From an uncultured Candidatus Saccharibacteria bacterium (GTDB taxonomy: Bacteria > Patescibacteriota > Doudnabacteria > UBA920): a stretch of 64,000 nt of DNA. Position numbers and translations under genes: made by a program. Position 1 is the stretch's first letter. Every line of letters starts with the position of its first letter. Where the stretch lies: assembly GCA_964504715.1 (NCBI GenBank), contig CAZDEP010000001.1, positions 16,830 through 80,829 on the forward strand, written 5' to 3'. The notes under the pieces are model-generated. The model worked only from the letters and a program-made list of their open reading frames with translations. It made no database searches and was not told the origin of the DNA. Shown piece after piece: positions 5,309 to 62,949 of this stretch.

Positions 5309-5326
5309 GCTAACTTAATTTAAAAA

Positions 5327-6409: not shown

Positions 6410-6688
6410 GAAGCAGGAAGCAAGAAGTAAGTATTAAGAAATAAGAGAAAAGAGAGAAATAAATTTAAATGAAATCTTGGATACCCAAAGGGAAAAGCTT
6501 TAAATGGTATCACAAAAAGAAAAAGCCCCCGATGCGGACGAAACCGCATAAGGGTCTTTCTCATGGTGATATAGTTATTATAACAGGAAAAAGAAAGCTG
6601 TCAAGCCATACTTGAAATTCATAAAATATGCAGCAATTGGAAATCAACAAAATACACCCTGTGAAATAATTTCAAATTTTTTCTTGTT

Positions 6689-6943
6689 ATGTTCTATGTT
6701 TATGTTTTACTTTCGAATAAAGATCATAAATTATATATTGGTTATACTAAAAATTTGAAATTAAGATTTGAGCAGCACGGTAATGGTGAGGTTGAATCAA
6801 CTAAAAATCGCAGGCCGTTGATTTTAATTTATTACGAAGCATGTTTGAATAGATCCGATGCAACAAAACGCGAGAAGTATTTTAAAACACATTATGGCCA
6901 TATGTTTATCAAAAAAAGGCTCAAATCTTATTTCACGGGGTAA
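6689..6943 (+). CDS. GIY-YIG domain nuclease (small stand-alone UPF0213/YhbQ-like type)
   Basis: N-terminal YVYVLLSNKDHKLYIGYTKNLKLRFEQH is a classic GIY-YIG signature (GIY ... YIG spacing, downstream R and E/H); 84 aa. Confidence 0.7.
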   Translation: MFYVYVLLSNKDHKLYIGYTKNLKLRFEQHGNGEVESTKNRRPLILIYYEACLNRSDATKREKYFKTHYGHMFIKKRLKSYFTG

Positions 6944-6948
6944 AAATC

Positions 6949-8088: not shown

Positions 8089-8152
8089 GTTAGGGAGTAA
8101 AAATTTGGAATTTATTTAGGCATTAGGCCAGTTGGGAATTTTAGTCAAAGTA

Positions 8153-8173
8153 TTGAACTATCCATGGTATAAT
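8153..8173 (+). promoter_or_regulatory. Sigma70-like promoter (TTGAAC -35 and extended -10 TGGTATAAT) upstream of the PrgI-like gene
   Basis: ttgaac-tatccatgg-tataat about 25 nt upstream of the start codon at 8198 (spacer short, call driven by the extended -10). Confidence 0.45.
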
Positions 8174-8197
8174 TACATATATAGAGTAAGCGCATAA

Positions 8198-8650
8198 ATG
8201 CAATATCCGGTACCACAATTCACCGATGTAGAGGACAAGCTCATAGGGCCTTTGGGCGCTAAGCAGTTTTTTATTGTTTTCGCAGCGGGCATCCTTATTT
8301 TTGCCGGATATTCCGCCACCAAAAGCATAGTAGCTCTCATTTTGCTGATTGTAATTTTCGGCTTGCCGGCTTTGGGTCTGGCGTTTGCCAAAATCAACGG
8401 CAGGCCCGCTTACAGGCAGCTTGGCTTTTTAATGTCTTTTTTTACCGCGCCCAAAAAACTGATTTTCCATAAAGAAGCGGTAAATTTTTCCCAAGAGACC
8501 AAAATGAAGGACATAAAGCTGGAAACGCAAGATACGGGGCCGGTTGAATCAAAAGAAACCACCCAGCAAAGGCTAAAAACAGTCCAGGAGCTATTAAGGA
8601 AACAGCAGGAAGAGGAAGAGATGCTTATTGACAAAATTGACCATAATTAA
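8198..8650 (+). CDS. PrgI-family (VirB3-analogous) small membrane protein of Gram-positive-type T4SS
   Basis: N-terminus VPQFTDVEDKLIGPLGAKQFFIVFAAGILIF matches the PrgI consensus (vp.di..EDKi.GPLtlRQf), followed by two TM helices. It sits directly upstream of VirB4, as in conjugation operons. Confidence 0.6.
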   Translation: MQYPVPQFTDVEDKLIGPLGAKQFFIVFAAGILIFAGYSATKSIVALILLIVIFGLPALGLAFAKINGRPAYRQLGFLMSFFTAPKKLIFHKEAVNFSQETKMKDIKLETQDTGPVESKETTQQRLKTVQELLRKQQEEEEMLIDKIDHN

Positions 8651-8744
8651 AAAATTGACAAAATTATGAAGCAGAAAATTAAGTCCTAAAGCAAAAAGCA
8701 ATTTTGTCATTTATGTCAATTTTTTAAATTTTGTCAATATTTAT

Positions 8745-9431
8745 ATGGAAATGGAAAAGAAAAACAAAACCGCGGTAAAAAGCACCCAAAGTTTTTTGCG
8801 CCTCAGTGAAATAAAAAACGACACCGTGGTGGTGGACGACGGCACTTTAAGGGCCATAATTGCGGTTTCGTCCACAAATTTTGACTTAAAAAGCCAGGAC
8901 GAACAGGAAGCAATAATTTTTAATTACCAAAGATTTTTAAATTCCCTGGAGTTCCCGGTCCAAATTTTAATGCAGAGCCGCAAAATGGAAGTGGGGGCCT
9001 ACGTGGAAAAGCTCAAAAAGCTTTCGGAAAAGCAGACTAACGAGCTGTTAAGGGTGCAGACGGTGGAATATACGGAATTCATAAGCCGGCTAATAGAAAA
9101 CGCCAGCATTATGAACAAGAATTTTTATGTCATAGTGCCTTTGGGAAAAAGCATAACACCAAGCCCGGCTGGGATTTTTAGCCGGATATTTTTGGGCGGA
9201 AAAAGCAAGGAGGCCGCCGAAAGGATACAAAATTTTGAAAAAAACAGCGAAGAGCTTTCAACGAGGGTTGTTGCCGCCATTGGCGGGCTTTCCCAGGTGG
9301 GCCTAAAGGCTGTCCGCTTAAGGACGGAGGAAATTATCCAGCTTTATTATAATTCCTATAATTTTGAAAGCGGCCCCGTTATTGACCCTAAAAGCTTGGC
9401 CGAGATAAAACTGGCTGAGCCACAAAAATGA
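8745..9431 (+). CDS. virB4: VirB4/TrbE-family ATPase, N-terminal fragment (aa 1 to about 228); the rest of the gene resumes at 9921 after an inserted element
   Basis: TVVVDDGTLRAIIAVSSTNFDLKSQDEQEAIIFNYQRFLNSLEFPVQILMQSRKMEV is the canonical VirB4/CagE N-terminal motif (lkdGslraiievsginfdL.seeEqe.ii..fq.fLnsLdfpiQi...sr). The ORF stops about 20 bp before the element's left TIR. Confidence 0.65.
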   Translation: MEMEKKNKTAVKSTQSFLRLSEIKNDTVVVDDGTLRAIIAVSSTNFDLKSQDEQEAIIFNYQRFLNSLEFPVQILMQSRKMEVGAYVEKLKKLSEKQTNELLRVQTVEYTEFISRLIENASIMNKNFYVIVPLGKSITPSPAGIFSRIFLGGKSKEAAERIQNFEKNSEELSTRVVAAIGGLSQVGLKAVRLRTEEIIQLYYNSYNFESGPVIDPKSLAEIKLAEPQK

Positions 9432-9450
9432 ATAGTGAAGTAAGAATTAT

Positions 9451-9910
9451 TCAGATCTGCAGATGGGCGGATTTTACAGATACCTACAGATTTTAAAAGA
9501 TAAAGCTTATGGAAAAAAATGAATTCCTGTACGGTGACGAGACTTATAAATTAAGGGGACTGCTTTTTTCTGTTCATAACGAACTTGGCAGGTTTGCCAA
9601 AGAAAAACAATATTGCGACAAAGCCGAGGAAAAGTTTATCATTAACCAGTGGCCACATGTTAGAGAACCCCAAATCGGAGATATTGGTGATAGACCGGAT
9701 TTTATAGTCTGGGACTTAATTGTTGTTGAGTTTAAAGCAAAACCGTATTCGCAACAATCAGATTTTGAGCAGGTGCAACGTTATTTGCAGCAGACTAAAT
9801 TGAAATTAGGCATACTGGTAAATTTTAGGGCAAAATATTTGAATCCCCAAAGAATTTTGAATATTAATCATCTGCAGGTATCTGTAAAATCTAAAGATCT
9901 GTAGATCGGA
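9451..9910 (+). mobile_element. Element of about 460 bp, bounded by ~33-bp terminal inverted repeats, carrying a GxxExxY-family ORF and inserted into the VirB4 gene
   Basis: Left end is acagatgggcggattttacagatacctacagat. Right end is atctgcaggtatctgtaaaatctaaagatctgtagatcgg, the reverse complement of the left end with a few mismatches. A cargo-less copy of the same ends abuts at 37296-37392. Confidence 0.6.
9509..9904 (+). CDS. GxxExxY-family protein (PD-(D/E)XK nuclease-like fold), cargo of the inserted element
   Basis: LLFSVHNELGRFAKEKQY resembles the family motif (..v..eLGpGflEsvYe..). The spacing here is GxxxxExxY, so the match is a variant. The ORF's C-terminal codons lie inside the right terminal inverted repeat. 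Confidence 0.5.
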   Translation: MEKNEFLYGDETYKLRGLLFSVHNELGRFAKEKQYCDKAEEKFIINQWPHVREPQIGDIGDRPDFIVWDLIVVEFKAKPYSQQSDFEQVQRYLQQTKLKLGILVNFRAKYLNPQRILNINHLQVSVKSKDL

Positions 9911-9920
9911 ATAAAATATC

Positions 9921-11765
9921 TTGAGTATTTTTAAAGCAAAAACCGAAGAAGAGTTGCAGGCCAAAAAAGCCCGGCTCGAGGAGATGGAGCAGGAAAGCAA
10001 TGCGGGCAGGCGGCTTAAGGAAGTGGAAAAAACTTACCGCGAAGGGCTGACGACTCTAAAAGATTTAATAGCGCCCGCGGCTTTGAATTTCCAGGGCTCC
10101 CATTTTGAGCTGAACGGAAAATTTGCCCGTACGTTTTTTGTGCTTGCGTACCCGCGTTTTTTGTCCAGCAATTGGCTGTCGTTTATTATAAACGCGGAAG
10201 GCGCGCTGGACGTTTCTATTTTTATTTACCCCATAAATTCGGAAACCATTTTAAAGAAGCTTAAATCCAAAGTCGGCGAAATTGGTTCGCAAATGGCCAT
10301 TAACCAGGAAAAAGGCATGGTCAGGGACCCTATGCTCGAAACCGCTTACAAAGACGTGGAGTCTTTGCGCGATTCGCTGGTGCAAGGCACGGAACGCTAT
10401 TTTAGGGTAGGAATTTATTTTACGGTTTACGCCGAAGATTTAAAGCAGCTGGAAGCATTTTCCACTTCGCTTGAGAGCTCTTTGGGTTCCAAATTAATTG
10501 TTACCAAGCGGGCAATAATGCAAACCCAAGCCGGCCTGAATTCCTCTTTGCCTTTGGGGTTGGACGAACTTGATGTCGGCAATAACATGAATACCGGGCC
10601 ACTTTCCACGACTTTTCCGTTTGTGTCTTCGGACGTAACTTCCAACGACGGCATATTGTACGGCATTAACCGCCATAACAACAGCTTAATTTTGTTTGAC
10701 CGGTTTGCCATGGAAAACGCCAACAGCGTGGTTTTTGCCAAGTCCGGCGCCGGCAAATCTTACGCCATTAAGCTGGAAATTTTAAGGAGCTTAATGGTGG
10801 GCACGGAGGTCATAGTTATTGACCCGGAAAACGAGTACAAACATTTGGCCGAAGCCGTGGGCGGCACCTATTTAAACGTTTCTTTAAACAGCAACTCCCG
10901 AATCAATCCTTTTGATATTCCCGTGGGCCTGGAGGGCGAGGACAATACCGACATTATGCGCACCGCCGTGGTAAACCTTTTGGGGTTGGCGAATTTGATG
11001 GTCGGGAAATTAAATCCGACCGAAGAAGCGCTTTTGGACAAGGCCATTTGGCAAACCTATGCCAAAAAAGACATAACCCCCGAGCTGGCGGATTTTAAGA
11101 GCATTGAACCTCCGACCATGAACGACCTTTTGGAAATTTTGGCCGGCACGGTGGGCGCGGAGAATTTGGCCCAGCGGTTTTCTAAATTCACGGAAGGCAC
11201 TTTTGCGGGACTGTTTAACCAGCCGACCAATGTGGTTTTAAACAACTTGCTGGTGGTTTTTTCCATTAGGGATTTGGAAGAAGAATTGAGGCCCATCGCC
11301 ATGTATATAATCCTAAATTATATATGGAATATTGTCAGAAGCGAATTAAAAAGAAGGATTATGGTAATTGACGAAGCCTGGATCCTTATGCAGCACGAGG
11401 ACAGCGCCCGTTTCCTGTTTGGCATAGCCAAAAGGGCCCGCAAATATTATTTGGGCCTGACAACCATTACGCAAGATGTGGTGGATTTCATGAACAGCCC
11501 TTACGGCAAGCCGATTGTTACTAACTCTTCCATCCAATTGCTTTTAAAACAGTCACCGGCTGCCATTAACGTAATTGCCGAAACTTTCTTTTTAACCGAA
11601 GGCGAAAAATACCTGCTTTTGGAAAGCGAAGTGGGCGAGGGGATTTTCTTTGCGGGCAACAAGCACGCGGCAATTAAAATTTATGCCTCCTACGTCGAAG
11701 ACCAAATTATAACCACGGACCCGAAGCAGTTATTAGAGATAAAAGAAAGCCAGGAAACAGTTTAA
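9921..11765 (+). CDS. virB4: VirB4/TrbE-family T4SS ATPase, remaining ~614 aa: middle domain plus C-terminal AAA+ ATPase
   Basis: LKDLIAPAALNFQGSHFELNGKFARTFFVLAYPRFLSSNWLSFIINAEGALDVSIFIYP matches the VirB4 middle-domain consensus. Walker A is FAKSGAGKSYAIK, Walker B is RIMVIDEAW. The track's first codon is TTG. Confidence 0.85.
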   Translation: MSIFKAKTEEELQAKKARLEEMEQESNAGRRLKEVEKTYREGLTTLKDLIAPAALNFQGSHFELNGKFARTFFVLAYPRFLSSNWLSFIINAEGALDVSIFIYPINSETILKKLKSKVGEIGSQMAINQEKGMVRDPMLETAYKDVESLRDSLVQGTERYFRVGIYFTVYAEDLKQLEAFSTSLESSLGSKLIVTKRAIMQTQAGLNSSLPLGLDELDVGNNMNTGPLSTTFPFVSSDVTSNDGILYGINRHNNSLILFDRFAMENANSVVFAKSGAGKSYAIKLEILRSLMVGTEVIVIDPENEYKHLAEAVGGTYLNVSLNSNSRINPFDIPVGLEGEDNTDIMRTAVVNLLGLANLMVGKLNPTEEALLDKAIWQTYAKKDITPELADFKSIEPPTMNDLLEILAGTVGAENLAQRFSKFTEGTFAGLFNQPTNVVLNNLLVVFSIRDLEEELRPIAMYIILNYIWNIVRSELKRRIMVIDEAWILMQHEDSARFLFGIAKRARKYYLGLTTITQDVVDFMNSPYGKPIVTNSSIQLLLKQSPAAINVIAETFFLTEGEKYLLLESEVGEGIFFAGNKHAAIKIYASYVEDQIITTDPKQLLEIKESQETV

Positions 11766-11770
11766 TTCTA

Positions 11771-11860
11771 TTGACATAATTGACAAAATTTAAATAATTG
11801 ACAAGATTGGGATTCGAAATTTTGCTCAATTTTGTTCAATTATGTCATTTTTGTCAATTT
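11771..11860. promoter_or_regulatory. Dyad-symmetric array of TTGACA-like repeats (about 3 forward, 4 reverse) upstream of the 970-aa gene
   Basis: ttgacataattgacaaaatttaaataattgacaag ... tttgctcaattttgttcaattatgtcatttttgtcaattttt. Similar arrays are at 8655-8740, 55519-55560 and 60705-60750. Confidence 0.45.
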
Positions 11861-11864
11861 TTTT

Positions 11865-14744
11865 ATGGCCGACGATAATAAACCAACAGGCTCAGCAGGC
11901 GTGGCGGAAGAAGCGCCGGCAAAAAAACCGGACGATGCGCCCAAACAGCGTCCGCTTTCAGGCAGGCCGCTAATTATTCAGTTTGGCATACCGATCCCGG
12001 GCGTGGGCGCGGTAATTAACGGTGTTTCCATAGACAATTTTCCCGCCCAGGGCACCCAGGCGGAAATAAACGGCGGGTCTTTTATCAGCCTCGTAGGGAT
12101 CGGCTTGGACAGGTTTGACGACGAATATTGGCGGCTGGAAAGGCAGGGGAAAAAACCTGTGGAGTTGAAAGTTGTGTCCGCAGGCACGGGCGGCGAAGGG
12201 AAAAATTCTTTGAGGGGGAGGTGGGTAACTTTGCAGGTGCCCCGCTCCGAAGTTTCGGGCCTTAATCCCAATGAAAGTTTAGGCCTTAGCTTTTTTAGCA
12301 GCCGGATTGGGGGCAAGTTGCGCACCTTGCCAATGGTTTTTGTTTTTAAATCTGACTCTAGCCAGACCCAGGCAGCGCAGACTGTTTCCAATGCGCCCCA
12401 AATCCCGGTACAGCCCGGTAACATGGGCCCGGGCAATTTATCGGCAAACGGCGGGGCCGGAGTTTTTTCTGGGGCTGAATTGGGCGGACAGGTAATAGGC
12501 GGGGCCGCAAAAGCCGCTGCCGGGGCTTTTTCCGCGGGCGCTGGAGACAAACCCGCATCCGGCCCAATAAAAGCATCAGGCACCTTAAAATCTATGAGCA
12601 CGACGGCCTCTGCTGCTCTGGGCGGCGTCCAGGCGGACTTAGATGGGGGCGGCGGGGAAGTTTCTGTTTCAGAAACCGTAAAAACCACGGGCGCCGCGTT
12701 GCCTCAAACAGTAAAGCAAAGCGTGGAGGTTATAGGCGAGCATTTGGACAAAACCCCCGAGCTTATTGTAAATGCCAACGTCAGGCAAAAAATTTCTTCG
12801 GCGTTAAAAAGCGGTAATCTGTCTTCCTTAAGCGCGGAAGAAAAACAAACTTTAAATACAACCCTAAAGACTGTTACCGAAGGCGGTGGGCAGGTTTCGG
12901 CACAAGTTCAGGCCGCAGCGGGCATTATTTTAAACAGTGAAATAACCGGGGAGGCGCAAGTTAAGGCGCAAGGGCGCGCATCAACCACGGACGAAGCCCC
13001 TGTTAAGCAAACCATGCCAGCCGAAGCTGAAGAATCTGTCCAAGCCCAAACAGCTCCCTCGGCCCAGCCCAAAACCCAATCAATGAGTTTGGGCCAAAGC
13101 CTGCAAGCTACAGGGGAATTTTTGCAAAAAAATAATATCATTCCTAACTTTAAAGGCAGTCGCGGGCGAATTTTACAAGCTTTGGCCAACGGAAAAATTA
13201 ACGAACTTTCCGAAGACGACAGGGAAGTTTTGGCCGGCGCTTTAAAGTCGGCCAAATCGCAAGCGCCGGCCTCACTGCAAGCGTCTTTAAATAAAACAGC
13301 CCAAGCGGTAGCTACAGGACCCAAGGCCGAGGCAAATATTTCCAAGCCGTCGGAAATTAAAGAGACCGCGCTTAAAGCGAGCGCGCCTTTGTCGGTTAAG
13401 CGGGAGTTTGACGCGAAAATCGCGCAAATGAATACTGCGGGGCGTAAAGTTGATGCCGCGGTTTTGGGCAAAAGGCCCGAAGGCGCCGATGAAATAAATT
13501 TAAGCCGGGGAAAAGACATTAAAGTTAGGGAAAAAGAAAAGGCTGAAGAATCCGTCAAAGAAGGCGCAGAAGGGGCGGAAATAGGAACGCAATCTCCGCA
13601 GGAAGGCGAATTATCCAGGCAGGAAGGTATGCCCGAGGAAAAAATTTCCCCGGTTCTTCCCATGCCGCCGGCCGCTCCGGAAAAAACCGAAGAAGAAAAA
13701 GACGAGCCTAATTCAAAATCAGGTATCAAACGCAAGCCCGAAGAAAAATCCGGCGAAAACAATCCGGAGGAGCTAAGCCAGGACGAACAAAACCGTTTGG
13801 CGGAATTGGAAGAACAGCAGGCGCGGCTGCAAAATCAGGAAAGGCTTAAAGCCGTAAAAGAACAACAAGAGCAAAGTCTCGCCCGGCAGGCCGCGGAAAA
13901 AGAGGCAAACGCCGCTCTAAACGCTGTTTTAATGAAAGGCATTATGGCAGTCTGGCTTGCCGCCGTCGAAACTTTGGGACTTTCAATTTTAGTGGGCGCT
14001 TTGGCGGGAGATGTAATTTGGATTTTTAAAGGGTGGATTTTAAAAAAATTTGAATCTGGCAGAAACATTTTAAACAAATTTCATGGCGGAAAAAATGCGG
14101 GGCACTTAAAAATAGAGTTAAGCGGGAAAGTAAAGTTGAATATTATTGCCATGAACCTGGCAGTAGTGGCGGTAATTATTTTTTTGGCGGGCATACTCTT
14201 TGCGGCTATTAGGTTTGGTTGCAAAACTTATTTGCTGAGGGGCGATTATTGCGCAGTAATTAACAATATGGATTTTGAGTCGTTTAAGTCTTATATTACT
14301 GTGCCAACTGTCCCGGCGGCGCCCGTTGGGGGCGTATGCAGCCCGGTTCCGGCCGGCGTGGCCAGCCCTTCGGCTTTGGCTGGCACTTGCTTTGGGCAAA
14401 ACGCTTCCGCGGCTTCCATGATAGCCGCGGCGGAAAGCGGGGGAGACCCGGGCAAGGCAAGCCGCGTGGATATTTGTACGGTGGACAACAGCGTGGTTTC
14501 CTGGGGCCTGTTCCAAATAAATTTAAGCGCGCATAAAATCGGCAGCCTGGATTGCCCCAAAGCTTTTAGCAAAATGTATACCGGCAGCAGCAAAGACTGC
14601 CGCGTGGTGGACCAGGCGCTGTACCAACTGTGTGTTAAGGCCGCTACCGCTCCCGACTCTCAAATCCAAACCGCCTGCGCAATTTCCGGCAACGGCAGCA
14701 ACTGGAACGCTTGGCTGAATACTAAAAATAAATGCGGACTTTAA
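11865..14744 (+). CDS. Giant T4SS-associated protein. It has a ~190-aa N-terminal domain, a ~500-aa Ala/Gln/Lys/Glu-rich disordered linker, two hydrophobic helices, and a C-terminal lytic transglycosylase (SLT/VirB1-like) domain.
   Basis: C-terminal ...AAAESGGDPGKASRVDICTVDNSVVSWGLFQINL carries the SLT catalytic Glu-Ser and the GLxQ(I/V) motif at the expected spacing. Hydrophobic helices are at about aa 690-715 and 750-775. The ATG at 11865 is preferred over the upstream TTG. Confidence 0.6.
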   Translation: MADDNKPTGSAGVAEEAPAKKPDDAPKQRPLSGRPLIIQFGIPIPGVGAVINGVSIDNFPAQGTQAEINGGSFISLVGIGLDRFDDEYWRLERQGKKPVELKVVSAGTGGEGKNSLRGRWVTLQVPRSEVSGLNPNESLGLSFFSSRIGGKLRTLPMVFVFKSDSSQTQAAQTVSNAPQIPVQPGNMGPGNLSANGGAGVFSGAELGGQVIGGAAKAAAGAFSAGAGDKPASGPIKASGTLKSMSTTASAALGGVQADLDGGGGEVSVSETVKTTGAALPQTVKQSVEVIGEHLDKTPELIVNANVRQKISSALKSGNLSSLSAEEKQTLNTTLKTVTEGGGQVSAQVQAAAGIILNSEITGEAQVKAQGRASTTDEAPVKQTMPAEAEESVQAQTAPSAQPKTQSMSLGQSLQATGEFLQKNNIIPNFKGSRGRILQALANGKINELSEDDREVLAGALKSAKSQAPASLQASLNKTAQAVATGPKAEANISKPSEIKETALKASAPLSVKREFDAKIAQMNTAGRKVDAAVLGKRPEGADEINLSRGKDIKVREKEKAEESVKEGAEGAEIGTQSPQEGELSRQEGMPEEKISPVLPMPPAAPEKTEEEKDEPNSKSGIKRKPEEKSGENNPEELSQDEQNRLAELEEQQARLQNQERLKAVKEQQEQSLARQAAEKEANAALNAVLMKGIMAVWLAAVETLGLSILVGALAGDVIWIFKGWILKKFESGRNILNKFHGGKNAGHLKIELSGKVKLNIIAMNLAVVAVIIFLAGILFAAIRFGCKTYLLRGDYCAVINNMDFESFKSYITVPTVPAAPVGGVCSPVPAGVASPSALAGTCFGQNASAASMIAAAESGGDPGKASRVDICTVDNSVVSWGLFQINLSAHKIGSLDCPKAFSKMYTGSSKDCRVVDQALYQLCVKAATAPDSQIQTACAISGNGSNWNAWLNTKNKCGL

Positions 14745-16598: not shown

Positions 16599-16675
16599 GT
16601 GTCCTTTTTGGGCATTTAGGTTTTTGAAAGTCTTAAATTTCTAATTAGCCTAATTTCTAATATCTAAATAGGCCT

Positions 16676-16695
16676 CAATTCCCAATTGGGAATTG
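16676..16695. promoter_or_regulatory. Perfect 18-bp palindrome AATTCCCAATTGGGAATT upstream of radA (candidate operator)
   Basis: caattcccaattgggaattg lies about 50 bp upstream of the radA start, inside an AT-rich region that also has CTAATTTCTAA repeats. Confidence 0.35.
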
Positions 16696-16744
16696 GACAT
16701 TATTTAGGTCAATTAGTACAATTAGAGTAATTAGGAATTTTTTA

Positions 16745-37175: not shown

Positions 37176-37295
37176 TGCCGTTTCATTTTAAACCTGACGG
37201 CCAATATCCCTTAAATTAATTTATTTTAGAGGAGTTTGAAAATCTGACAATCGACATAATTAAAATGAAACGGTACTAAAATAATTTATTCCGAT

Positions 37296-37392
37296 ATACA
37301 GATGGGCAGATATTTCAGATAACTACAGATATTATTATAAATATTTTATTTACCATCTGTAGGTATCTGTATTATCAGATAATCAGTAAATC
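37296..37392. mobile_element. Cargo-less MITE-like copy (left TIR directly abutting right TIR) of the element that splits virB4
   Basis: acagatgggcagatatttcagataactacagat + spacer + ccatctgtaggtatctgtattatcagataatcagtaaatcgg. Each end is about 85% identical to the 9451/9868 TIRs. Confidence 0.6.
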
Positions 37393-37725: not shown

Positions 37726-37798
37726 CCGAGCGTTTAGGGCTAAGCGCTAAGGGCTAAGATTTCTTAGCGCTATACGCTTAGCCCTTAGCCCTGAAAAA

Positions 37799-42660: not shown

Positions 42661-42976
42661 GATTTTCCCTCCTGCGAATTTGTAGGCGTCGCGGTCTAGT
42701 AGGTGCGGGCGCCAGAAGGTGCTTGGCTTTAAGGCTTTTTAGGCCTTTTTGCTCGCAAATGCGGGCAAAAGTTACTTTTAGAGCCATTTTTAAGTAACCT
42801 ATAATTATATCATAAATTAATAATTTTGTCAATAGTAAAACCTCTTATTTTAGGGGTATTTTCTAAGATTTTAATGAAATTAAGTAATGAAAAAACCATT
42901 TAAAAACCCCTGTCTGGAATAAATCCTTGCAAGGGGTTAGTAATCTATTTAAAATTTAAAATCACCCTATTTTTTT

Positions 42977-43083
42977 CTGTGTCATTGCGAGGAGACAGGG
43001 CCTAGTCTGTCGACGAAGCAATCTAGCAGTTGGGTTTATGTGAAAGATTGCTTCGGTCGTCTAACTCCCTCGCAATGACACAA
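42977..43083. repeat. Intergenic copy of the palindromic MITE-like element found in gatB
   Basis: ctgtgtcattgcgagg ... cgacgaagcaatc ... gattgcttcggtcg ... cctcgcaatgacacaa. Confidence 0.65.
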
Positions 43084-43110
43084 ATAATAAAATGCATAAA
43101 ACATGGCAAT

Positions 43111-44301: not shown

Positions 44302-44312
44302 TATGGTATAAT
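44302..44312 (+). promoter_or_regulatory. Extended -10-like TATGGTATAAT upstream of the 44347 gene
   Basis: tatggtataat lies about 35 nt upstream of the ATG. Confidence 0.4.
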
Positions 44313-44904: not shown

Positions 44905-45039
44905 CACTACAGAAAATATCCGGGTATTTTCACAGCTTTCGGATCTTGTAAAATTATAGGACCAATCGGACGAATAAGACTAATGGGTTGTATACGACTG
45001 ATAGTGCATATAAGACCAATAAGACAGGTAGCAAGCATA

Positions 45040-45761
45040 TGACAGACAGCCATCAATATATAAAAAACATTCTTGACCGGCAAATACAGACGGGGCATTT
45101 TCCTCATGCGTATTTATTTGTCGGGCCCAAAGGCTCGGGCAAAAAAACCATGGCAATTGATTTGGCCAAGAAACTTTTGGGCACGGAGAATTTAGCGGTG
45201 CATCCGGATTTTTCGGAATTTAGCGCGGAGGCTGGAGCCTCGGCCGAATCGGTGCGGGAATTTACCATTAGGATGGGCATGAAGCCGTTTGTGGCCAAAC
45301 TCAAATTTGCGCTGGTGGGTAATATGGAGAACCTCACAAGCCAAGGCGCCAACGCGCTTTTAAAGACTTTGGAGGAGCCGCCCGAAAATACGGTTATGGT
45401 CCTAACAGCGAATTTGAGGAGGGTTTTGCCGACAATTTTTTCCCGGTGCCAGGTATTTAATTTTAATAGGCGCGGATCACGCGCGGATTCTAACGCGGAT
45501 TACCCGCTGAAGGATCTTAAAATCAGCGATTATGCTGGCAAGAGTTTGGCCGAAAAGCTTTTGGCAATAAATACATTTGCAGATTTGGAAGAAATGGAGT
45601 TAAGGCAGAGCATTGAAGATTTTATTTACCAAACGGCGGAAACGTTGTCGACATTGCCCCACAAGTATACGCAGCTGGCCGCGGGCCTTAAGGCCTACGA
45701 AGATTTGGACACAAATAAAAATAGAAAATTAATTTTGCAGGGGTTAATGGTAAAAATATAA
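45040..45761 (+). CDS. holB: DNA polymerase III delta' subunit (HolB-like clamp-loader subunit)
   Basis: GHFPHAYLFVGPKGSGKKT (P-loop-like), LLKTLEEPPENTVMVLTA, and SRC motif TIFSRCQVF. The ATG at 45040 is preferred over the track start. Confidence 0.75.
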
Positions 45762-45767
45762 CAGGGC

Positions 45768-45850
45768 TCTCTACGAACTACGAACTGAGTGCGAACTTAC
45801 GAACATCCCGTTTCGTATATTTCGTAAAAAGTTCGTAGTTCGTAGAAAAA
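45768..45850. repeat. About 83-bp structured repeat, copy A (outer 15-bp arms ctacgaactacgaac / gttcgtagttcgtag); it is the inverted partner of copy B
   Basis: tctctacgaactacgaac-tgagtgcgaacttacgaacatcccgtttcgtatatttcgtaaaaa-gttcgtagttcgtag. The reverse complement of the inner 45 bp is found exactly in copy B. Confidence 0.7.
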
Positions 45851-45855
45851 TTTAT

Positions 45856-46911
45856 ATGAAAAACAAAATAATCTTCCTTTCCCTTATTTTTTTAGCGGCT
45901 TCGTGCAACCCGTTTAAGCAGCCGCAAATTGCCGGCGTGGCCAAATCAACGAACGGCGGCGTGGACTGGCAAGCCGCCAACGCCACCAAGGAAAATTTGG
46001 GTTCAGTGGCGGGAGTCAATGTCGCCAAAATGGATTTCGACCCCCAGAACCGCGAAGTGGTGTATGTGTCGGGGTTTAACGACGGTCTTTATAAATCAAC
46101 AGATTCGGCCGGCACTTGGGAAAGGATATTGAGCAATATTTGGGTGTTTGATTTTGCCATAGACCCTTTTGATAGCAAAATTATATACGCCGGCGGTTAT
46201 TTTGGGGACAAGGGCAGCTTGGTTAAAACCCGCGACGGGGGGAAAAGTTGGGAGGAAATTTACAGCGAAGCGACGCCGCAGGTTTCGGTAAGGGGCGTGG
46301 CAATAAACCCCATTAACACCAACCAAATTGTCATAGGCACGAGCGCGGGCGGAGTTATAAAATCCAACGACGGCGGTTTGACCTGGAAGCTGGTGAAAAA
46401 TTTCGGTGAAAGGGTAAACAGGGTCTATTGGCAGAACGGGCAGGTCTACGCTTTGGTGAGGAGCAAGGGCTTGTTTAAGTCCACCAATTTGGACAGCGGG
46501 GAATTTTCCGACCTGACTTTGAGCCTGACCAAAAGCGATAATTTTTACCAAAACTTCATTGGCATAAACGATCAAAGCTTTAACCAGGCCTATATAGACA
46601 CACTGGCCCCCGGACTGATATATTTAACAGCAGGGAAAGGGTTTTTTAAAACCGTAAACGAGGGGCAAACATGGCAGAAGTTGGCGTTGCCGGGAAATTA
46701 TGACGTAAATTTGCCTGCCCGCCCGGTTGCGGTTTATAAACAATCAAGCAATATTGTAATGGTAGGCATTGGCAATGTGGTTTACAGGTCGGCCGACGGG
46801 GGCACAACCTGGCAAACGCAAAAAGTCAATTCTTTGGGTTTTGTAAATTATATATTAATCGACCCGCAGCTTTCCCAGATTGTTTATGCTGGGAATTTTG
46901 TATCACAATAA
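45856..46911 (+). CDS. BNR/Asp-box repeat lipoprotein (sialidase-like beta-propeller fold without obvious catalytic residues)
   Basis: Lipoprotein signal LSLIFLAASCNP. There are five S/T-x-D-x-G-x-T/S-W Asp-box motifs: STDSAGTW, TRDGGKSW, SNDGGLTW, VNEGQTW, SADGGTTW. Confidence 0.6.
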   Translation: MKNKIIFLSLIFLAASCNPFKQPQIAGVAKSTNGGVDWQAANATKENLGSVAGVNVAKMDFDPQNREVVYVSGFNDGLYKSTDSAGTWERILSNIWVFDFAIDPFDSKIIYAGGYFGDKGSLVKTRDGGKSWEEIYSEATPQVSVRGVAINPINTNQIVIGTSAGGVIKSNDGGLTWKLVKNFGERVNRVYWQNGQVYALVRSKGLFKSTNLDSGEFSDLTLSLTKSDNFYQNFIGINDQSFNQAYIDTLAPGLIYLTAGKGFFKTVNEGQTWQKLALPGNYDVNLPARPVAVYKQSSNIVMVGIGNVVYRSADGGTTWQTQKVNSLGFVNYILIDPQLSQIVYAGNFVSQ

Positions 46912-46985
46912 TCTCTACGAACTACGAACTTTTTTACGAAATATACGAAACGGGATGTTCGTAAGTTCGCACTCAGTTCGTAGTT
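46903..46985. repeat. About 83-bp structured repeat, copy B (inverted copy of 45768-45850)
   Basis: tctctacgaactacgaac-ttttttacgaaatatacgaaacgggatgttcgtaagttcgcactca-gttcgtagttcgtag. Confidence 0.7.
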
Positions 46986-46999
46986 CGTAGAAAATCCAT

Positions 47000-47557
47000 A
47001 TGATCGACCAAATTATTAGCCAACACAAACCGGAATTTGAAAAAGTCATTGAGCATTTTTTGCACGAGCTGTCCGGCGTGCGCACAGGCCGGGCAAACCC
47101 TGCGCTCTTAAATACCGTGCAGGTGGAAAGCTACGGCTCGCGGATGCCCCTTGAACACGTGGCCTCCGTAACGGTATCGGACGCGAGGACTTTGGTAATC
47201 AGTCCGTGGGATAAAGGACAAATTCAGGCCATAGAAAAGGGTATTCAAATCGCGAATTTGGGTTTCAACCCATCGAATGACGGCGTGGTGATCCGCATAA
47301 CATTGCCCGCGCTTAACGAAGAACGCAGGAAAGAAATGGTAAAACTGGTGGGGCAGATTGCGGAAAAAGGCCGGATTGGCATTCGCAATGTCCGCGAATC
47401 CGCCATCAAAGAAATGAAAAAGGCGGAAAGCGACGGTAAAATTTCCAAAGACGATCTTACGGGCGGACAAAGGAAGCTGCAGGAAAGCGTGGACAGGTAT
47501 AATGAGGAAATAAAAAAGCACGCGGAGGGGAAAGAGAAGGAAGTAATGACCGTGTAA
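47000..47557 (+). CDS. frr: Ribosome recycling factor
   Basis: 185 aa; LSGVRTGRANPALLNTVQVESYGSRMPLEHVASVTVSDARTLVISPWDK is the RRF consensus. Confidence 0.9.
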   Translation: MIDQIISQHKPEFEKVIEHFLHELSGVRTGRANPALLNTVQVESYGSRMPLEHVASVTVSDARTLVISPWDKGQIQAIEKGIQIANLGFNPSNDGVVIRITLPALNEERRKEMVKLVGQIAEKGRIGIRNVRESAIKEMKKAESDGKISKDDLTGGQRKLQESVDRYNEEIKKHAEGKEKEVMTV

Positions 47558-47637
47558 GCAAGTATAATGTATAAAGTATTATGTATTATGCAAATTTTGC
47601 TCATACGTAATACGTTATACTAAATACGTTTTACATT

Positions 47638-48852
47638 ATGATTTCCACTGTAATTATCTTTATTATCATTTTAGGCCTGCTCGTGTTTGTGCATGAGTTT
47701 GGGCATTTTTACGCGGCCAAAAAAAGCGGGATGCGAGTTTTGGAATTTGGATTTGGGTTCCCGCCAAGATTGTTGGGGGCCCAGAAAGTGAATGGAAAAT
47801 GGCGGATCGTTTGGGGCCATAAAGATCCAACGCAATCAACCTCTCCCCATCCCTCCACACATCTTGCGGAGGGAGCAAGCCAAGGTGCATCCGTTGTTTC
47901 CTCCCCCTTGAGGGGGGAGGAAGGTGGGGGTGATGATAGCACTATATATTCCATAAATGCCATTCCTCTTGGCGGGTTTGTAAAAATTTGGGGTGAAAAC
48001 AACGAATACGAAAACGATCCGCGCTCATTCATTAGCCGCCCGTTTTGGAACAGGTTTGCCACGCTTGTTGCGGGCGTGGTAATGAACGTGGTGTTGGCGT
48101 GGGTTTTACTGTCGGCCGGATTTATGGCGGGGATGCCCACAGCCGTGGAAAGTTTGGAAAGTTTGCCTAAAAGCGCCACGCTGCTAAACCCGCATGTGGG
48201 AGTGTTGGAAGTTTTGGAAAAAAGTCCTGCGCAAGCGGCGGGCCTTATGCCTGACGATTTAATTTTGGGGGTGGATGGGCAAAAGTTTTATACTGCTTCG
48301 GGATTCCAAGAATACATTCGGGCAAACAAAGGCAAAGTTTTTGAATTTAATATCCAAAGGGGCGGTGAAGAAAAAACCATCAGAGTGGAATCGTTGGCCA
48401 ACCCGGGAGAAAACGAGGGGCCCACGGGCATTGCCATAGCCGATGTGGGAAATTTAAGGTTTACGCCTTTTTATGCCGTCATATATGGCGCCAAGGCCAC
48501 GGGCATCCAGCTGTATGGCATTGGCAAGGGCTTGGTTGGGCTTTTTGGTTCCGGTATGGGGCTTAAAGCCCTGGGCGGGCCCGTTAAAATTGCACAGGTT
48601 ACGGGGCGCGCCGCGGAAATGGGCTTTATTTATCTTTTGCAGTTTACTTCCTTCCTTTCGCTAAACTTGGCAATTTTGAATATTTTGCCTTTTCCCGCGC
48701 TCGACGGCGGCAGGGTTTTGTTTTTGATAATTGAAAAAATCCGCGGGGTAAGGAATAATCCCAAAGTTGAGCAAGCCTTCAACGCCGCCGGCTTTGCGCT
48801 CCTAATTTTACTGATGATTTTAGTGACAATTAAAGATGTGAGAGGAATATAA
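47638..48852 (+). CDS. rseP: RIP metalloprotease RseP (site-2 protease, M50) with a ~50-aa insertion after the HExxH helix
   Basis: HEFGHF zinc motif, a PDZ domain (GVLEVLEKSPAQAAGLMPDDLILGVDGQ), and LNILPFPALDGG. The insertion AQKVNGKWRIVWGHKD...SSPLRGEEGGGDD precedes the conserved IPLGGFVKI. Confidence 0.85.
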   Translation: MISTVIIFIIILGLLVFVHEFGHFYAAKKSGMRVLEFGFGFPPRLLGAQKVNGKWRIVWGHKDPTQSTSPHPSTHLAEGASQGASVVSSPLRGEEGGGDDSTIYSINAIPLGGFVKIWGENNEYENDPRSFISRPFWNRFATLVAGVVMNVVLAWVLLSAGFMAGMPTAVESLESLPKSATLLNPHVGVLEVLEKSPAQAAGLMPDDLILGVDGQKFYTASGFQEYIRANKGKVFEFNIQRGGEEKTIRVESLANPGENEGPTGIAIADVGNLRFTPFYAVIYGAKATGIQLYGIGKGLVGLFGSGMGLKALGGPVKIAQVTGRAAEMGFIYLLQFTSFLSLNLAILNILPFPALDGGRVLFLIIEKIRGVRNNPKVEQAFNAAGFALLILLMILVTIKDVRGI

Positions 48853-49677: not shown

Positions 49678-50907
49678 ATGAGACAATCACATTATTTTTT
49701 AAAAACCAGCAAGACCCAGCCCGGGGAGGACCTTTCCACCAACGCGCGGCTTTTGGAGCAGGGCGGTTTTGTCCAAAAAGTTTTGGCGGGCGTTTATGAT
49801 TTTTTGCCTTTGGGCTTAAGGGTCCTTTCGCGCATTGAAAATATTGTCAGGCAGGAAATGGACAAAATCGGAAGCGAAATGTTTATGCCTGTTTTGCATC
49901 CGAAAGAAAATTGGCAGGCTACGGGCCGGTGGACGGGATTGGACGTGCTTTTTAAAATCAAATCCCAGCATGGCAGCGAATACGCCATGGGGCCTACCCA
50001 CGAAGAAATAGTCACGCCGGCGGCCCAAGCCGTAATATCTTCTTATAAAGATTTGCCTTTGGCTGTGTATCAGATCCAAACCAAATTCCGGGACGAACCT
50101 CGGGCAAAGTCCGGCCTTATGCGCGGCAGGGAATTTAGGATGAAAGACCTGTACAGCTTCCATGCGACCGCAGAGGATTTGGAAAACTATTATACCAACG
50201 TGGCCATGCCGGCTTACGAAAAAATATTTAAGCGGTTGGGCTTAAACGCTTTGCTGACGGAGGCTTCCGGCGGGACATTTTCCAAATTTTCCCACGAATA
50301 CCAGGTAGAAATTCCAAGCGGGGAAGACACGATTTACATATGCGAAAAATGCAATTTAGCCAAGAACAAAGAGATTTTTGAAGCAGGTGTAAAGTGTTCG
50401 GCCTGCGGCAGCGACAAATATAGGGAAACCAAAGCGTCGGAAGTGGGCAATATTTTTAAATTGCAGAATAAGTATTCTTCGGCTTTTAATTTGCAGTTTA
50501 CGGACAAGGACGGTTCCAAAAAGCCTGTGCTTATGGGCTGTTATGGGATAGGCACCAGCCGGCTTATGGGCGTAAGCGTGGAAAAATACCACGACGAAAA
50601 GGGCATAATTTGGCCCGAGGCCATTGCTCCTTTTAAGGTGCATCTTTTGGCGCTTAAAGGCGGGGAAAAAGCGGCCGATGAGTTGTATGAGGCTTTATTA
50701 AAGACGGGAATTGAAGTATTATATGACGACAGGGAAGCCAGCGCCGGGGTGAAGTTTGCGGATGCGGATTTAATAGGCATACCTTACAGGGTACTGGTCA
50801 GCGAAAAGACCCTCAAAGAGGAGAGTGTGGAGGTGAAAAAAAGGAGCGAGGAAAAAACAAAATTAGTTAAAATAAAAGATGTTTTACCAATTTTCCAGAA
50901 CAAATAA
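49678..50907 (+). CDS. proS: Prolyl-tRNA synthetase (short class II form lacking the bacterial editing domain)
   Basis: Class II motifs, an N-terminal pattern (FLKTSKTQPGEDLSTNARLLEQGGFVQKVLAGVYDFLPLGLRV) that reads as ProRS-like by recall, a zinc-binding insertion CEKCN...CSACG, and a C-terminal anticodon-binding domain. Confidence 0.8.
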   Translation: MRQSHYFLKTSKTQPGEDLSTNARLLEQGGFVQKVLAGVYDFLPLGLRVLSRIENIVRQEMDKIGSEMFMPVLHPKENWQATGRWTGLDVLFKIKSQHGSEYAMGPTHEEIVTPAAQAVISSYKDLPLAVYQIQTKFRDEPRAKSGLMRGREFRMKDLYSFHATAEDLENYYTNVAMPAYEKIFKRLGLNALLTEASGGTFSKFSHEYQVEIPSGEDTIYICEKCNLAKNKEIFEAGVKCSACGSDKYRETKASEVGNIFKLQNKYSSAFNLQFTDKDGSKKPVLMGCYGIGTSRLMGVSVEKYHDEKGIIWPEAIAPFKVHLLALKGGEKAADELYEALLKTGIEVLYDDREASAGVKFADADLIGIPYRVLVSEKTLKEESVEVKKRSEEKTKLVKIKDVLPIFQNK

Positions 50908-51033
50908 TTTTCAATTTGTAATTTTCAATTTTCAGTCAGTTTTCAATTTAAAATTTTTTTACTTTGGATCATTCATTGAAAATTAGAAAATAAAAATTGA
51001 AAATTTAGAGACCCTGGTCTTAAATTTTCAATT

Positions 51034-52086: not shown

Positions 52087-52156
52087 TTCGCAAATGCACG
52101 AATAAATACAAATAGCACAAATAAAAAATTGCGGAATTTGTGATATTTGTGAATTA

Positions 52157-55500: not shown

Positions 55501-55689
55501 GTGGATAATATTGGCATAATTGAACAAAATTGACAAAAATAATAAAAATGACAAAAATAAAGATAATAGGATCCAAATTTCAAATATCAAATTACCAATT
55601 TCAAATAAATTTTTAAATGGCTTAATGTCAGAAATTGGAAATTTAAGAATTAAAATTTTTTTGGAATTTGATATTTGTAATTTGAAATT

Positions 55690-58753: not shown

Positions 58754-58856
58754 ATTAATATGCATGCGAAAATGAGCATACGAAACAACGAAATGGCCAT
58801 GCGAAAGTTGTTTTTCGTAGTTTTTTGCAGTTTCGCATGTAATTTTCGCATTCACT

Positions 58857-60211: not shown

Positions 60212-60364
60212 TTAACCTAATTGTTCTAATTGACCTAATTTCTAAACAATGACTAATGTTAAATAAACAAATGTCAAACCGCTGGAGTTCTTAGACATTA
60301 TTGTATTTGGCATGAGAAATTGTTTAGATCAATTAGAAATTAGAATAATTAGAAATTTAAAACT

Positions 60365-60700: not shown

Positions 60701-60916
60701 GAAAATTGACAAAATTGAACAAAAATAAGCTGCAGTCTAATTATGTCAATTTATTTAATTTTTTAAATTTTAATCAATATTAATATTTGTGGGACCTGAA
60801 AAATTTTGTTGTTCACTGAGCTTGTCGAAGTGGTAACAAAATTGAGCCTTCGACAGGCTCAGACATAAATTTAGAGCATGTCTGATAAGGGTTTGCACCA
60901 CGAAAGGAATCAAGTT

Positions 60917-61600: not shown

Positions 61601-61630
61601 GAAAAAGTGGCAAGTAGCTAATAGAAGTAT

Positions 61631-61668
61631 AAAAATGCCTTTCTGCAAGATGCAGAAGGGCATTTTAA
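61631..61668 (+). terminator. Rho-independent terminator after rplA
   Basis: aaaatgcctttctgca-agat-gcagaagggcatttt followed by aaaatt. Confidence 0.6.
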
Positions 61669-62949
61669 AATTCGCGAAAAAAAAGAAAAACCGGCGCGCT
61701 GGTTGGCGGCCGGTTTTGTTTTGGGGCGGGGCAGGGATGGTTATCCTTTCCCCGCCTGGTAAGGGGGTTTGCCGGGATCCACGGGTGGATCCCAGTTGAA
61801 TGGTTCTGGTTCTTCGCGGTCGCAATCAACCGCGAATAAAATTTTATATTCGCTAAAGTCGTATATCATAGCCCTTGTCATAACGCCCTCCGTTATGATT
61901 TTAAGGCCATTCGCAAGCTTTTTACGTATAGTCTTAAAGCCATAAATTTTTTGTAAAAATAAAAAACCAGCCCCTTGCGGGACCGGTACTTTGTTATGGA
62001 TAATTCTCGACTAAACTCGAATATTATCAACAAAAACAAACCCAAAGCCCCTTAAGGAGGTAAGGCTAAGAAGGAGCGAGAGGTTGTTTAAGAAATTATG
62101 CATTTGTTATATTTTATCAGGCTGTGGGAGTTTGTCAAATGTGGGCGCAGATTTCACGCGGAATTACTGCAGACGCGGATACACGCGGAAGGTTATAAAT
62201 AAGGGAGCGGAGGGACTCCCTAGAGGCGATGTATAGAACATCAGCTTAGGGAATCGCTCCGCTGAGGATTAGATCCCGGTAAAAAATCTCCATCGGTCGT
62301 ACCGAGGGTTGATCTTTTCTTCCGCCTCGGGGGCGGAAGGGGGTTGGGCGGTTGCCGGCTCTTCGCCGGCGGTTTGGGTTTGGGGGCCTTCATCGGACCC
62401 TTCCCCAAAATAATTGAGTTTATTTTGGTCGGACATAAGTTTGGGCATTTTTAATTTAAAACTTGCCCAAGCTAATGGCTGCAAAACTTTTTCCTCCTTT
62501 TTTAGGGTGCCTGGTTTGCCTATTTTTAAATAAGCAAAATTACGCATCCTATTTATTGCGTTACCCCTCCCTAACCTTCCCCCTAAAGGGGAGGGAGCTT
62601 AAAAAGTATTGTGCGTTCTGTAGCGTGCCCATTTATGGGCTGGAATATATTGATGGCTGCAGCCGATAAATCGGCACACTACGTCGCATCGTTTTTATTA
62701 AAAAATAAAGGTTAATTAAAAACCCCTGCCTTTTAGGCAGGGGTTTGAGAGTTTAGATTAAACTAAAAACTCTTCCGCTGCCGGAGGCCGGGGATAATAA
62801 TAATGCTAATTATGCTTGCAGACGCGCTGATATTTGTGAACATAAACTTGTTGATAAAACTGCCCGTAAAAGGCATTTATTATGCTTATTTTAAGCACCG
62901 GAAAAAATTTTGTCAAGCAATAATTTATGGTGTAGAATAAATCAAGTCA

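Follow-up and report, generated by a model that had tools for sequence, protein, structure and literature searches.

A probable small palindromic repeat element on both sides of a conserved BNR gene, one family among many unit-array hairpins in the spacers of a Candidatus Doudnabacteria genome

The DNA considered here is a stretch of 64,000 nucleotides from a Candidatus Doudnabacteria genome (GenBank assembly GCA_964504715.1, contig CAZDEP010000001.1, positions 16,830 to 80,829), and this whole stretch is called the window. Within it, a gene for a BNR/Asp-box beta-propeller protein lies between holB and frr and is bracketed by two copies of a short palindromic repeat, referred to as element A and element B. 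The neighbourhood consists of miaA (minus strand), a cupredoxin-like gene, holB, the BNR gene, frr, rseP, a sigma-like gene, a class II aminoacyl-tRNA synthetase (aaRS) gene, mreBCD, PBP2 and folD, and from 44347 onward all genes are located on the plus strand. The features at the locus are the following.

44304-44312, plus strand: promoter motif of the extended -10 type, TGGTATAAT, at which the cupredoxin-like/holB/BNR/frr... transcript likely begins
44988-45761, plus strand: holB (DNA polymerase III delta'), the upstream cistron
45770-45846, no strand assigned: element A, palindromic repeat of 77 nt between holB and BNR; folds as RNA at -39.8 kcal/mol, z -7.6; Tandem Repeats Finder (TRF) period 7
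45770-45786 and 45830-45846: outer arms of element A, two tandem CTACGAA/TTCGTAG heptamers per arm
45787-45829: interior of element A, asymmetric, with degenerate GCGAA/ACGAA units and then TTCGT units
45856-46911, plus strand: BNR/Asp-box beta-propeller gene, 351 aa; signal peptide and Cys lipobox-like N-terminus; Pfam Sortilin-Vps10/PSII_BNR/BNR
46914-46991, no strand assigned: element B, second copy of the element (78 nt), between BNR and frr and oppositely oriented (interior reverse-complementary to that of A)
46914-46930 and 46975-46991: outer arms of element B
47000-47557, plus strand: frr (ribosome recycling factor), the downstream cistron

The inverted repeat around the BNR gene is real. 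An earlier note on this DNA had described it as two 83-bp copies enclosing only the 351-aa BNR gene; the repeat was recovered by repeat search and 45856-46911 is the sole open reading frame (ORF) between the copies, but 83 bp included non-repeated flank, and the real size is 77 and 78 nt. A and B are exact reverse complements bar one base in an A5/T6 run, at which the two arm pairs of the repeat search overlap (45770-45830 with 46931-46991, 61 nt, 100%; 45826-45846 with 46914-46934, 21 nt, 100%). Element A starts 8 nt past the holB stop and ends 9 nt ahead of the BNR ATG, where a gap of 5 bp had been given, and B starts 2 nt past the BNR TAA stop, not at the stop codon itself, and ends 9 nt ahead of the frr ATG; the 3' arms of both therefore end at the same distance, 9 nt, from an ATG. 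The flanks read CTC / AAA for A and ATC / AAA for B.

Each element is delimited by a perfect 17-bp terminal palindrome (TCTACGAACTACGAACT / AGTTCGTAGTTCGTAGA) with a degenerate inner stem inside. The arms are made of tandem CTACGAA (x2.3) without internal self-complementarity, TRF reports period 7 at all four of them, and ACGAA/TTCGT units occur 4+4 per element. Folded by itself, each copy gives a long stem-loop with energies between -34 and -41 kcal/mol (z -6 to -9.6), among them -33.8 kcal/mol for B on the plus strand and -40.8 kcal/mol on the minus strand. The 45-nt interior has two exact occurrences in the window, one per strand, where shuffled sequences give an expectation of 0 matches, and the 15-mer arms are found at four places only, all of them arms of A or B. 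The same A-BNR-B layout is present in an ENA assembly that is 99.5% identical (L001; L-numbers denote compared sequences), which provides independent support. Two Logan contigs, assembled from other samples, have their first base within B, the kind of break expected of k-mer assembly at a repeat. Rfam at gathering thresholds recognizes 3 tRNAs only in the whole window and has no match at A or B, and a literature search with the exact 14-mers returned no paper.

Two observations concern the assemblies themselves. Short-read contigs begin or end in spacer hairpins at window position 46962 and at position 1 of L002, L003, L026 and L038; spacer hairpins fragment short-read assemblies of this lineage. 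In L001, a rearrangement or duplication of ~26 nt at 2327-2353 splits frr into ORFs of 156 aa and 47 aa, probably through misassembly (coverage 2.6x).

Homologues of the BNR gene number 316 at E <= 1e-10, are mostly 350-355 aa in length, and several come from sources named Candidatus Doudnabacteria or Patescibacteria. The order and orientation holB-BNR-frr-rseP are kept in relatives at 96%, 68%, 64% and 62% BNR identity and also in a lineage with a 92% identical Frr, and in all relatives, as in the two informative assemblies, BNR and frr point in one direction. Judged from these comparisons, the gene represents a conserved Doudnabacteria family of constant length that is ancestral at the holB-frr position, and it is not cargo. 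The earlier note had raised the possibility that the gene is variably present upstream of frr; instead the gene persists in relatives with as little as 62% BNR identity, and it is the repeats that the locus does not conserve, an outcome that answers in spirit to the refuting condition set in that note.

This conservation bears directly on the idea of a mobile gene cassette, in which BNR would have been inserted together with its flanking repeats between holB and frr in an integron- or composite-transposon-like manner. Exactly one ORF is indeed enclosed by the repeats, stop codon to start codon, as in such a cassette; yet the synteny extends down to 62% BNR identity with flanking hairpins that are different or absent, the family has constant length, and no integrase or transposase was found by a Pfam scan of the ~60 ORFs across the 64-kb window. 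We consider the cut-and-paste cassette suggested earlier to be extremely improbable. Identity with an integron attC site was likewise rejected, as the RYYYAAC...GTTRRRY core is unmatched (the element has GTTCGTA, with C at an R position), there is no integrase, and the gene is syntenic in all relatives. Resemblances to CIRCE and to the LexA box were dropped since core motifs or spacing do not fit and the partner genes are absent.

Perfect 77-bp inverted repeats around a single surface-protein-like gene also recall a site-specific invertible segment, in which a recombinase flips 45847-46913 and thereby switches BNR on and off in a phase-variable manner. No tyrosine or serine recombinase (Phage_integrase, Resolvase, Recombinase domains) and no transposase occurs among the ~60 ORFs of the window, so that the nearby site-specific recombinase called for by the inversion hypothesis is missing from the 64 kb; Y1/HUH proteins (Y1_Tnp) are absent from the window ORFs and from the called genes of the fetched relatives, and no Nop-domain protein was found among the same window ORFs. 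The segment is one complete ORF with neither a promoter motif nor alternative gene ends inside, and the repeats, self-folding palindromes with single occurrences elsewhere, greatly exceed typical inverton repeats in length. In close relatives the same spacers contain hairpins that are not identical, or no hairpin, thus there is no conserved inversion system, and both spanning assemblies as well as all relatives show one orientation. A flip would moreover place an antisense gene in the transcript feeding frr. A dedicated phase-variable switch is therefore highly improbable, although not quite as remote as the cassette. A less demanding version is occasional RecA-dependent inversion or hairpin-mediated rearrangement between the 77-bp copies, producing a by-product polymorphism with no regulatory purpose. 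Perfect identity over 77 bp at a distance of 1.07 kb is a workable substrate for homologous recombination, and the identity itself could be upheld by gene conversion. However, no contig of the inverted form was found and both full assemblies agree (the Logan contigs, broken in the repeat, are uninformative), and we regard such rearrangement as unlikely.

The transcriptional setting can be approached through the extended -10 motif. Of 10 perfect matches to TGGTATAAT, 7 precede a gene start by 30-60 nt and are correctly oriented, and from this placement it appears to be the main promoter signal of this organism; sites in the window are at 1974, 8165, 15328, 25648 (minus strand), 34696, 44304 and 57467. 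After 44304 the next perfect match on the plus strand is the one at 57467, and between 44304 and 47495 there is no match even at 1 mismatch, so the bracketed segment is without the motif. A generic sigma-70 scan gave weak 9/12 matches only, and the organism's own extended -10 motif is more informative. This distribution argues that A and B most likely lie intercistronically inside one transcript. A Shine-Dalgarno sequence is recognizable in only ~6 of the 58 window genes, while many start codons adjoin the 3' arm of a spacer hairpin, the arm often ending 2-10 nt before the ATG.

Strong hairpins directly past stop codons could be dedicated bidirectional terminators or insulators that make BNR its own transcription unit, which was the alternative offered in the earlier note. 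In other phyla, related CTACGAA hairpins are often situated between genes that converge, and the TAG of TTCGTAG recurs every 7 nt and creates stops in several frames, both of which would suit such a function. The description of A and B as independent strong hairpins has held, since each copy folds alone, but the label of terminator has not. Past the hairpins the sequence reads AAAAATTTAT for A and AAAATCCAT for B, and GAGAGCCC and GAGATTAT on the minus strand; there is no T-run, and hence no U-tract, after A or B on either strand, and a terminator scan makes no call there, whereas canonical terminators with a GC stem and T-run are found in the same window at ~1801, 41581 and 61687. Downstream of A or B there is no promoter motif to restart BNR or the essential frr, the apparent single operon must be read through to frr, and the presence of the hairpins varies among close relatives. 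Termination as their purpose is accordingly unlikely.

Another possibility is that the ACGAA/TTCGT units, placed upstream of starts lacking a Shine-Dalgarno sequence, form arrays for an RNA- or DNA-binding protein (e.g., of S1, Csp or CsrA type) and control translation. A protein-binding role has been proposed for the TAACTGA heptamer repeats in Beggiatoaceae (PMC4679880), and this reading is also favoured by the 4+4 recurrence of units per element, by the closeness of many 3' arms to an ATG and by the rarity of Shine-Dalgarno sequences noted above. On the other hand, the unit differs from spacer to spacer, so that no single binding specificity fits, the units are base-paired in the hairpin, and elements are gained and lost between close relatives while the genes remain unchanged. 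We judge this reading to be still less probable than termination.

The spacers of the operon are also of interest for their other contents. At 64% BNR identity, L030 (5814-6170) and L031 (3676-4032) carry a 118-aa gene of the 23S_rRNA_IVP family between frr and rseP, and operon spacers therefore also accept small selfish genes. Inside the rseP coding sequence (CDS; M50 protease), a sliding fold revealed a perfect G/C-rich palindrome, TTTCCTCCCCCTTGAGGGGGGAGGAA, at 47896-47925.

The broader context of A and B is given by the other spacers of the window, many of which hold hairpins consisting of inverted arrays of 7-9-nt units, each spacer with its own unit. Tandem arrays of period 7-10 are strongly concentrated there, 41 of 56 lying in the non-coding 11.7% of the window (p = 1.7e-26). 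The arrays and hairpins are listed below, and no strand is assigned to any of them.

8626-8741: spacer hairpin of 9-nt units ATTGACAAA/TTTGTCAAT; related arrays at 11770-11862, 55510-55556 and 60702-60771
9432-9508 and 37290-37380: CAGAT-type units
16636-16744: further array of CTAATTAG-type units
37726-37798: gatC-gatA spacer hairpin, GCTAAGC/CTTAGCC units (37729-37792); -35.3 kcal/mol, z -4.1
47558-47637: frr-rseP spacer hairpin, GTATAAT/ATACGTA units (47562-47629); z -3.6
50905-51033: aaRS-mreB spacer hairpin, AATTTTC/GAAAATT units (50905-51005)
52087-52156: ACAAAT-type units
58754-58856: ydjM-nusG spacer hairpin, GCGAAA/ACGAAA...TTTCGTAG/TTTCGCAT units
60212-60364: post-rplK spacer hairpin, CTAATTAG-type units; -44.5 kcal/mol, z -9.1

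A and B are two members of this window-wide class and are unusual only in being one family at 100% identity. The framing as inverton or cassette took no account of the class, in which A and B are two of many unit-array hairpins of fast turnover.

Three unusually long non-coding stretches of the window, at 42661-43110 (450 nt), 61601-62268 (668 nt) and 62548-62949 (402 nt), are strongly structured (z about -6); they include a hairpin with 23-bp arms at 42970-43090 and several GC-rich stem-loops, match no Rfam family at gathering threshold, and may be unannotated non-coding RNAs. Elsewhere, 2036-14744 is occupied by a type IV secretion/conjugation-like cluster (TrbL/VirB6-like, PrgI, TraG/VirB4-like ATPase, lysozyme-like domain), with a stand-alone GIY-YIG protein of 84 aa (6689-6943) and a PD-(D/E)XK nuclease of 131 aa (9509-9904) interspersed among its genes.

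Comparison with relatives shows how rapidly these spacers change. The spacers flanking BNR usually hold long imperfect hairpins of like design, units followed by their complements, that are unrelated in sequence. The units found in them are as follows.

L026: ACGAAA/GCGAAA and CCGGAA/ACGGAA
L027: TACTAAA/TACGAAA
L030 and L032: ACGAAT/ACAAAT and TACTAAT/TGCAAAT

Between the window and L026, in which BNR is 96% identical (CDS ~93% at the nucleotide level), homology ends at stop codons and resumes at ATATG, and the sequences of the frr-rseP spacer are unrelated. One family reappears at other loci: the GCGAAA hairpin of the ydjM-nusG spacer in the window matches the holB-BNR spacer of L026 at 86% over 91 nt and the BNR-frr spacer of L034-L037 at 84.5% over 97 nt, which places the family at three different loci in three close relatives. 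For the TACGAAC family, to which A and B belong, only presence and absence document the change of position, the family being in the window and not in L026 or L034. In L027 one spacer measures no more than 28 nt. In L034, holB and BNR overlap (ATGA) with no hairpin upstream of BNR, and the BNR ORF reaches 17 codons further upstream, overlapping holB; a clean insertion boundary therefore cannot be read at this spacer. The (CTTACTA)n array in the frr-rseP spacer measures 71 nt in L034 (5559-5629) and 57 nt in L036 (3375-3431), a difference of exactly two units, even though the Frr proteins of the two are identical, and this is direct evidence of slippage polymorphism. L019 contains two 94% identical TACGAAC-type elements around a small membrane-protein gene in a trxB...pfkB...efp array, and these are in direct orientation; the relative orientation of paired elements therefore looks incidental, including the inverted arrangement of A and B.

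We consider, with a probability of roughly 70%, that A and B are both copies of a single short non-coding palindrome, a repeat element in the sense of REP elements (repetitive extragenic palindromes), their hairpin-forming doublets (REPINs) or miniature inverted-repeat transposable elements (MITEs), situated between co-transcribed genes, and that their inverted arrangement is incidental. The element is a self-folding unit of 77-78 bp with 17-bp terminal inverted repeats of tandem CTACGAA heptamers, and in this scenario its class would occupy most of the short intergenic spacers of this Candidatus Doudnabacteria genome. One copy would recently have been copied or inserted beside the other, a local event suggested by the 100% identity of A and B, in an orientation that would be arbitrary because the element is near-symmetric; the BNR gene did not arrive with them. 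Unit arrays may lengthen and shorten by replication slippage, the complementarity of the arms may be upheld by template switching or by selection for the stem, and whole elements may spread between spacers by copying, via a trans-acting enzyme or gene conversion. Because the elements sit in a polycistronic transcript directly upstream of starts without Shine-Dalgarno sequences, their main effect would probably be at the RNA level, where, by analogy with Correia and REP elements, stable intercistronic stem-loops could affect how the adjacent cistrons are processed or translated, or how stable they are.

Several points weigh against this interpretation. The A/B family has only 2 copies within the 64-kb window, whereas high copy number defines REP and MITE families. 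Neither a transposase nor a REP-associated tyrosine transposase (RAYT) was found among the window ORFs with Pfam, and no target-site duplication is visible at the flanks of A or B. The relatives compared provided no empty-site/filled-site pair for either of the spacers flanking BNR, and insertion is therefore inferred from the relocation of families. The aaRS-mreB (91%) and mreB-mreC (96%) hairpins are kept at orthologous positions between the window and L034; turnover is thus not uniform, and some members of the class may be under selection. The proposed role at the RNA level is drawn by analogy.

Within one transcript, pairing of A with B could give a perfect double-stranded RNA of 77 bp with -134.8 kcal/mol, as against -71.6 kcal/mol for the two local hairpins, and this duplex is the minimum free energy structure of the whole 45700-47060 region, although co-transcriptional folding and translating ribosomes may prevent it from forming. 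A bolder and unlikely extension of the repeat-element reading goes further. It proposes that the hairpins would constitute an undescribed class of elements in Doudnabacteria, possibly also in other Patescibacteria, with arms of tandem 7-9-nt arrays, which would spread into intercistronic spacers and change places among them with no recognizable transposase, adjoin starts lacking a Shine-Dalgarno sequence and serve as the main punctuation of polycistronic mRNA; the A:B duplex would in addition loop out the BNR cistron as a substrate of RNase III and allow its excision or silencing in the holB...frr operon. If this were true, the duplex would be an ideal RNase III substrate, and one accessory cistron would be cut out or silenced post-transcriptionally in an essential operon.

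Hairpins with CTACGAA/TTCGTAG stems are also found beyond this genome. A wider scan, with both arms fixed and the interior free, recovered single copies in one Muribaculaceae metagenome-assembled genome and 20 metagenome contigs with GC contents of 0.34-0.69 (L004 4721-4794; L005 2592-2672; also L006-L025). They have 2-8 units per arm and lie nearly always 0-30 nt past the stop codon of at least one neighbour. As an internal control, other heptamers (AATTAGG, AGGGGCC, AATCCCT, ACTGATC) form like hairpins in the same contigs; CTACGAA is probably one unit among many, and its recurrence across phyla partly reflects ascertainment, the heptamer having been the target of the search. Viral contigs gave zero matches for the CTACGAA pattern and for three composition-matched permutations alike. 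A metagenome, WBZP01, harbors a family of CTACGAA hairpins in at least 10 copies with a conserved TGAAGAG...CTCTTCA inner stem. The 3' end of a tRNA (...GGTTCGAGTCCGTGCGGGGACAAA) immediately precedes three high-GC CTACGAA hairpins, at L010 ~8650-8760, L014 ~610-720 and L024 ~3845-3955, and these could be tRNA terminators or an attachment-site-like context.

The analysis removes a false lead, as this bacterium of the candidate phyla radiation (CPR) has neither a phase-variable surface protein nor a mobile cassette at this locus. As first posed the finding is ordinary, and the pattern at the level of the class is moderately interesting for a CPR genome: in a minimal-genome lineage of the Patescibacteria, most of the scarce intergenic DNA consists of hairpins of inverted tandem unit arrays that turn over faster than genes and relocate between spacers. 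If confirmed genome-wide, this bears on operon punctuation and translation in organisms largely without Shine-Dalgarno sequences, on what mobilizes palindromic repeats in the absence of an evident RAYT or transposase, and on the cause of the breaks at spacers when such genomes are assembled from short reads. That unrelated phyla share the CTACGAA-stem hairpin poses a minor puzzle of its own.

Among known systems, the invertons (fimS, hin/gin and the promoter invertons of Bacteroides) share with A and B the inverted repeats around a short segment by a surface-protein gene, but they have short repeats, an adjacent recombinase, and an internal promoter or alternative coding ends, none of which is seen here. 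An array of the TIGR-Tas (tandem interspaced guide RNA and associated protein) type was also rejected: a TIGR array has two alternating 8-12-nt repeats with 9-nt variable spacers (a 36-nt unit, 5-15 units) beside a Nop-domain gene (PMC12045711), whereas the period here is 7, variable spacers are lacking, the structure is a single hairpin and the window has no Nop domain.

The heptanucleotide repeats, namely the short tandemly repeated repetitive (STRR) sequences of cyanobacteria and the TAACTGA repeats of Beggiatoaceae, Cyanobacteria and Bacteroidetes, resemble A and B in their period of 7 and strongly intergenic position. They too lie a few nucleotides upstream of starts in spacers without canonical ribosome-binding sites, with the same heptamer in unrelated phyla and copy-number changes of the slippage type (PMC4679880). 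They are nearly always direct arrays, with 169 direct heptamer sets against 1 inverted in the BOGUAY genome (PMC4679880), and in this they differ from the inverted pairs that form long hairpins here.

The REP sequences of Proteobacteria, together with bacterial interspersed mosaic elements (BIMEs) and REPINs, which are associated with RAYT/TnpA-REP proteins, are like A and B short non-coding extragenic palindromes in spacers, commonly just past stops inside operons; like the A/B class they occur in either orientation, form hairpins in single-stranded DNA or mRNA, and are found in some strains but not in others. The tetranucleotide GTAG precedes REP stems (PMC3333891, PMC3116915), and every TTCGTAG unit contains GTAG, here within the stem and not at its foot, and other unit families of the window are without it. 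The arms here are tandem heptamer arrays and not individually palindromic REPs forming doublets, the stems are AT-richer and much longer, no RAYT is seen in 64 kb, the A/B family has 2 copies in 64 kb as compared with tens to hundreds per genome, and many unit families coexist in one genome, as against 1-3 REP families.

Correia elements of Neisseria (Correia repeat enclosed elements, CREE, or Neisseria miniature insertion sequences, NEMIS) and MITEs share with A and B the size class of ~100 bp, the terminal inverted repeats and the location beside genes. CREE are co-transcribed, their hairpins are bound or cleaved by RNase III, and their positions differ between close genomes (PMC2649163). 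The terminal repeat of CREE is conserved and 26 bp long, the target duplication is TA, an IHF site is present and near-identical copies number in the hundreds, whereas A and B have tandem-heptamer ends and no visible target duplication. As for the MITE traits, the perfect 17-bp terminal inverted repeats are present and a target-site duplication is absent, and differing positions in related genomes are documented for the sister GCGAAA family. Several features that mark membership in these families are thus lacking, yet in function A and B would be like REP/REPIN sequences or Correia-type MITEs.

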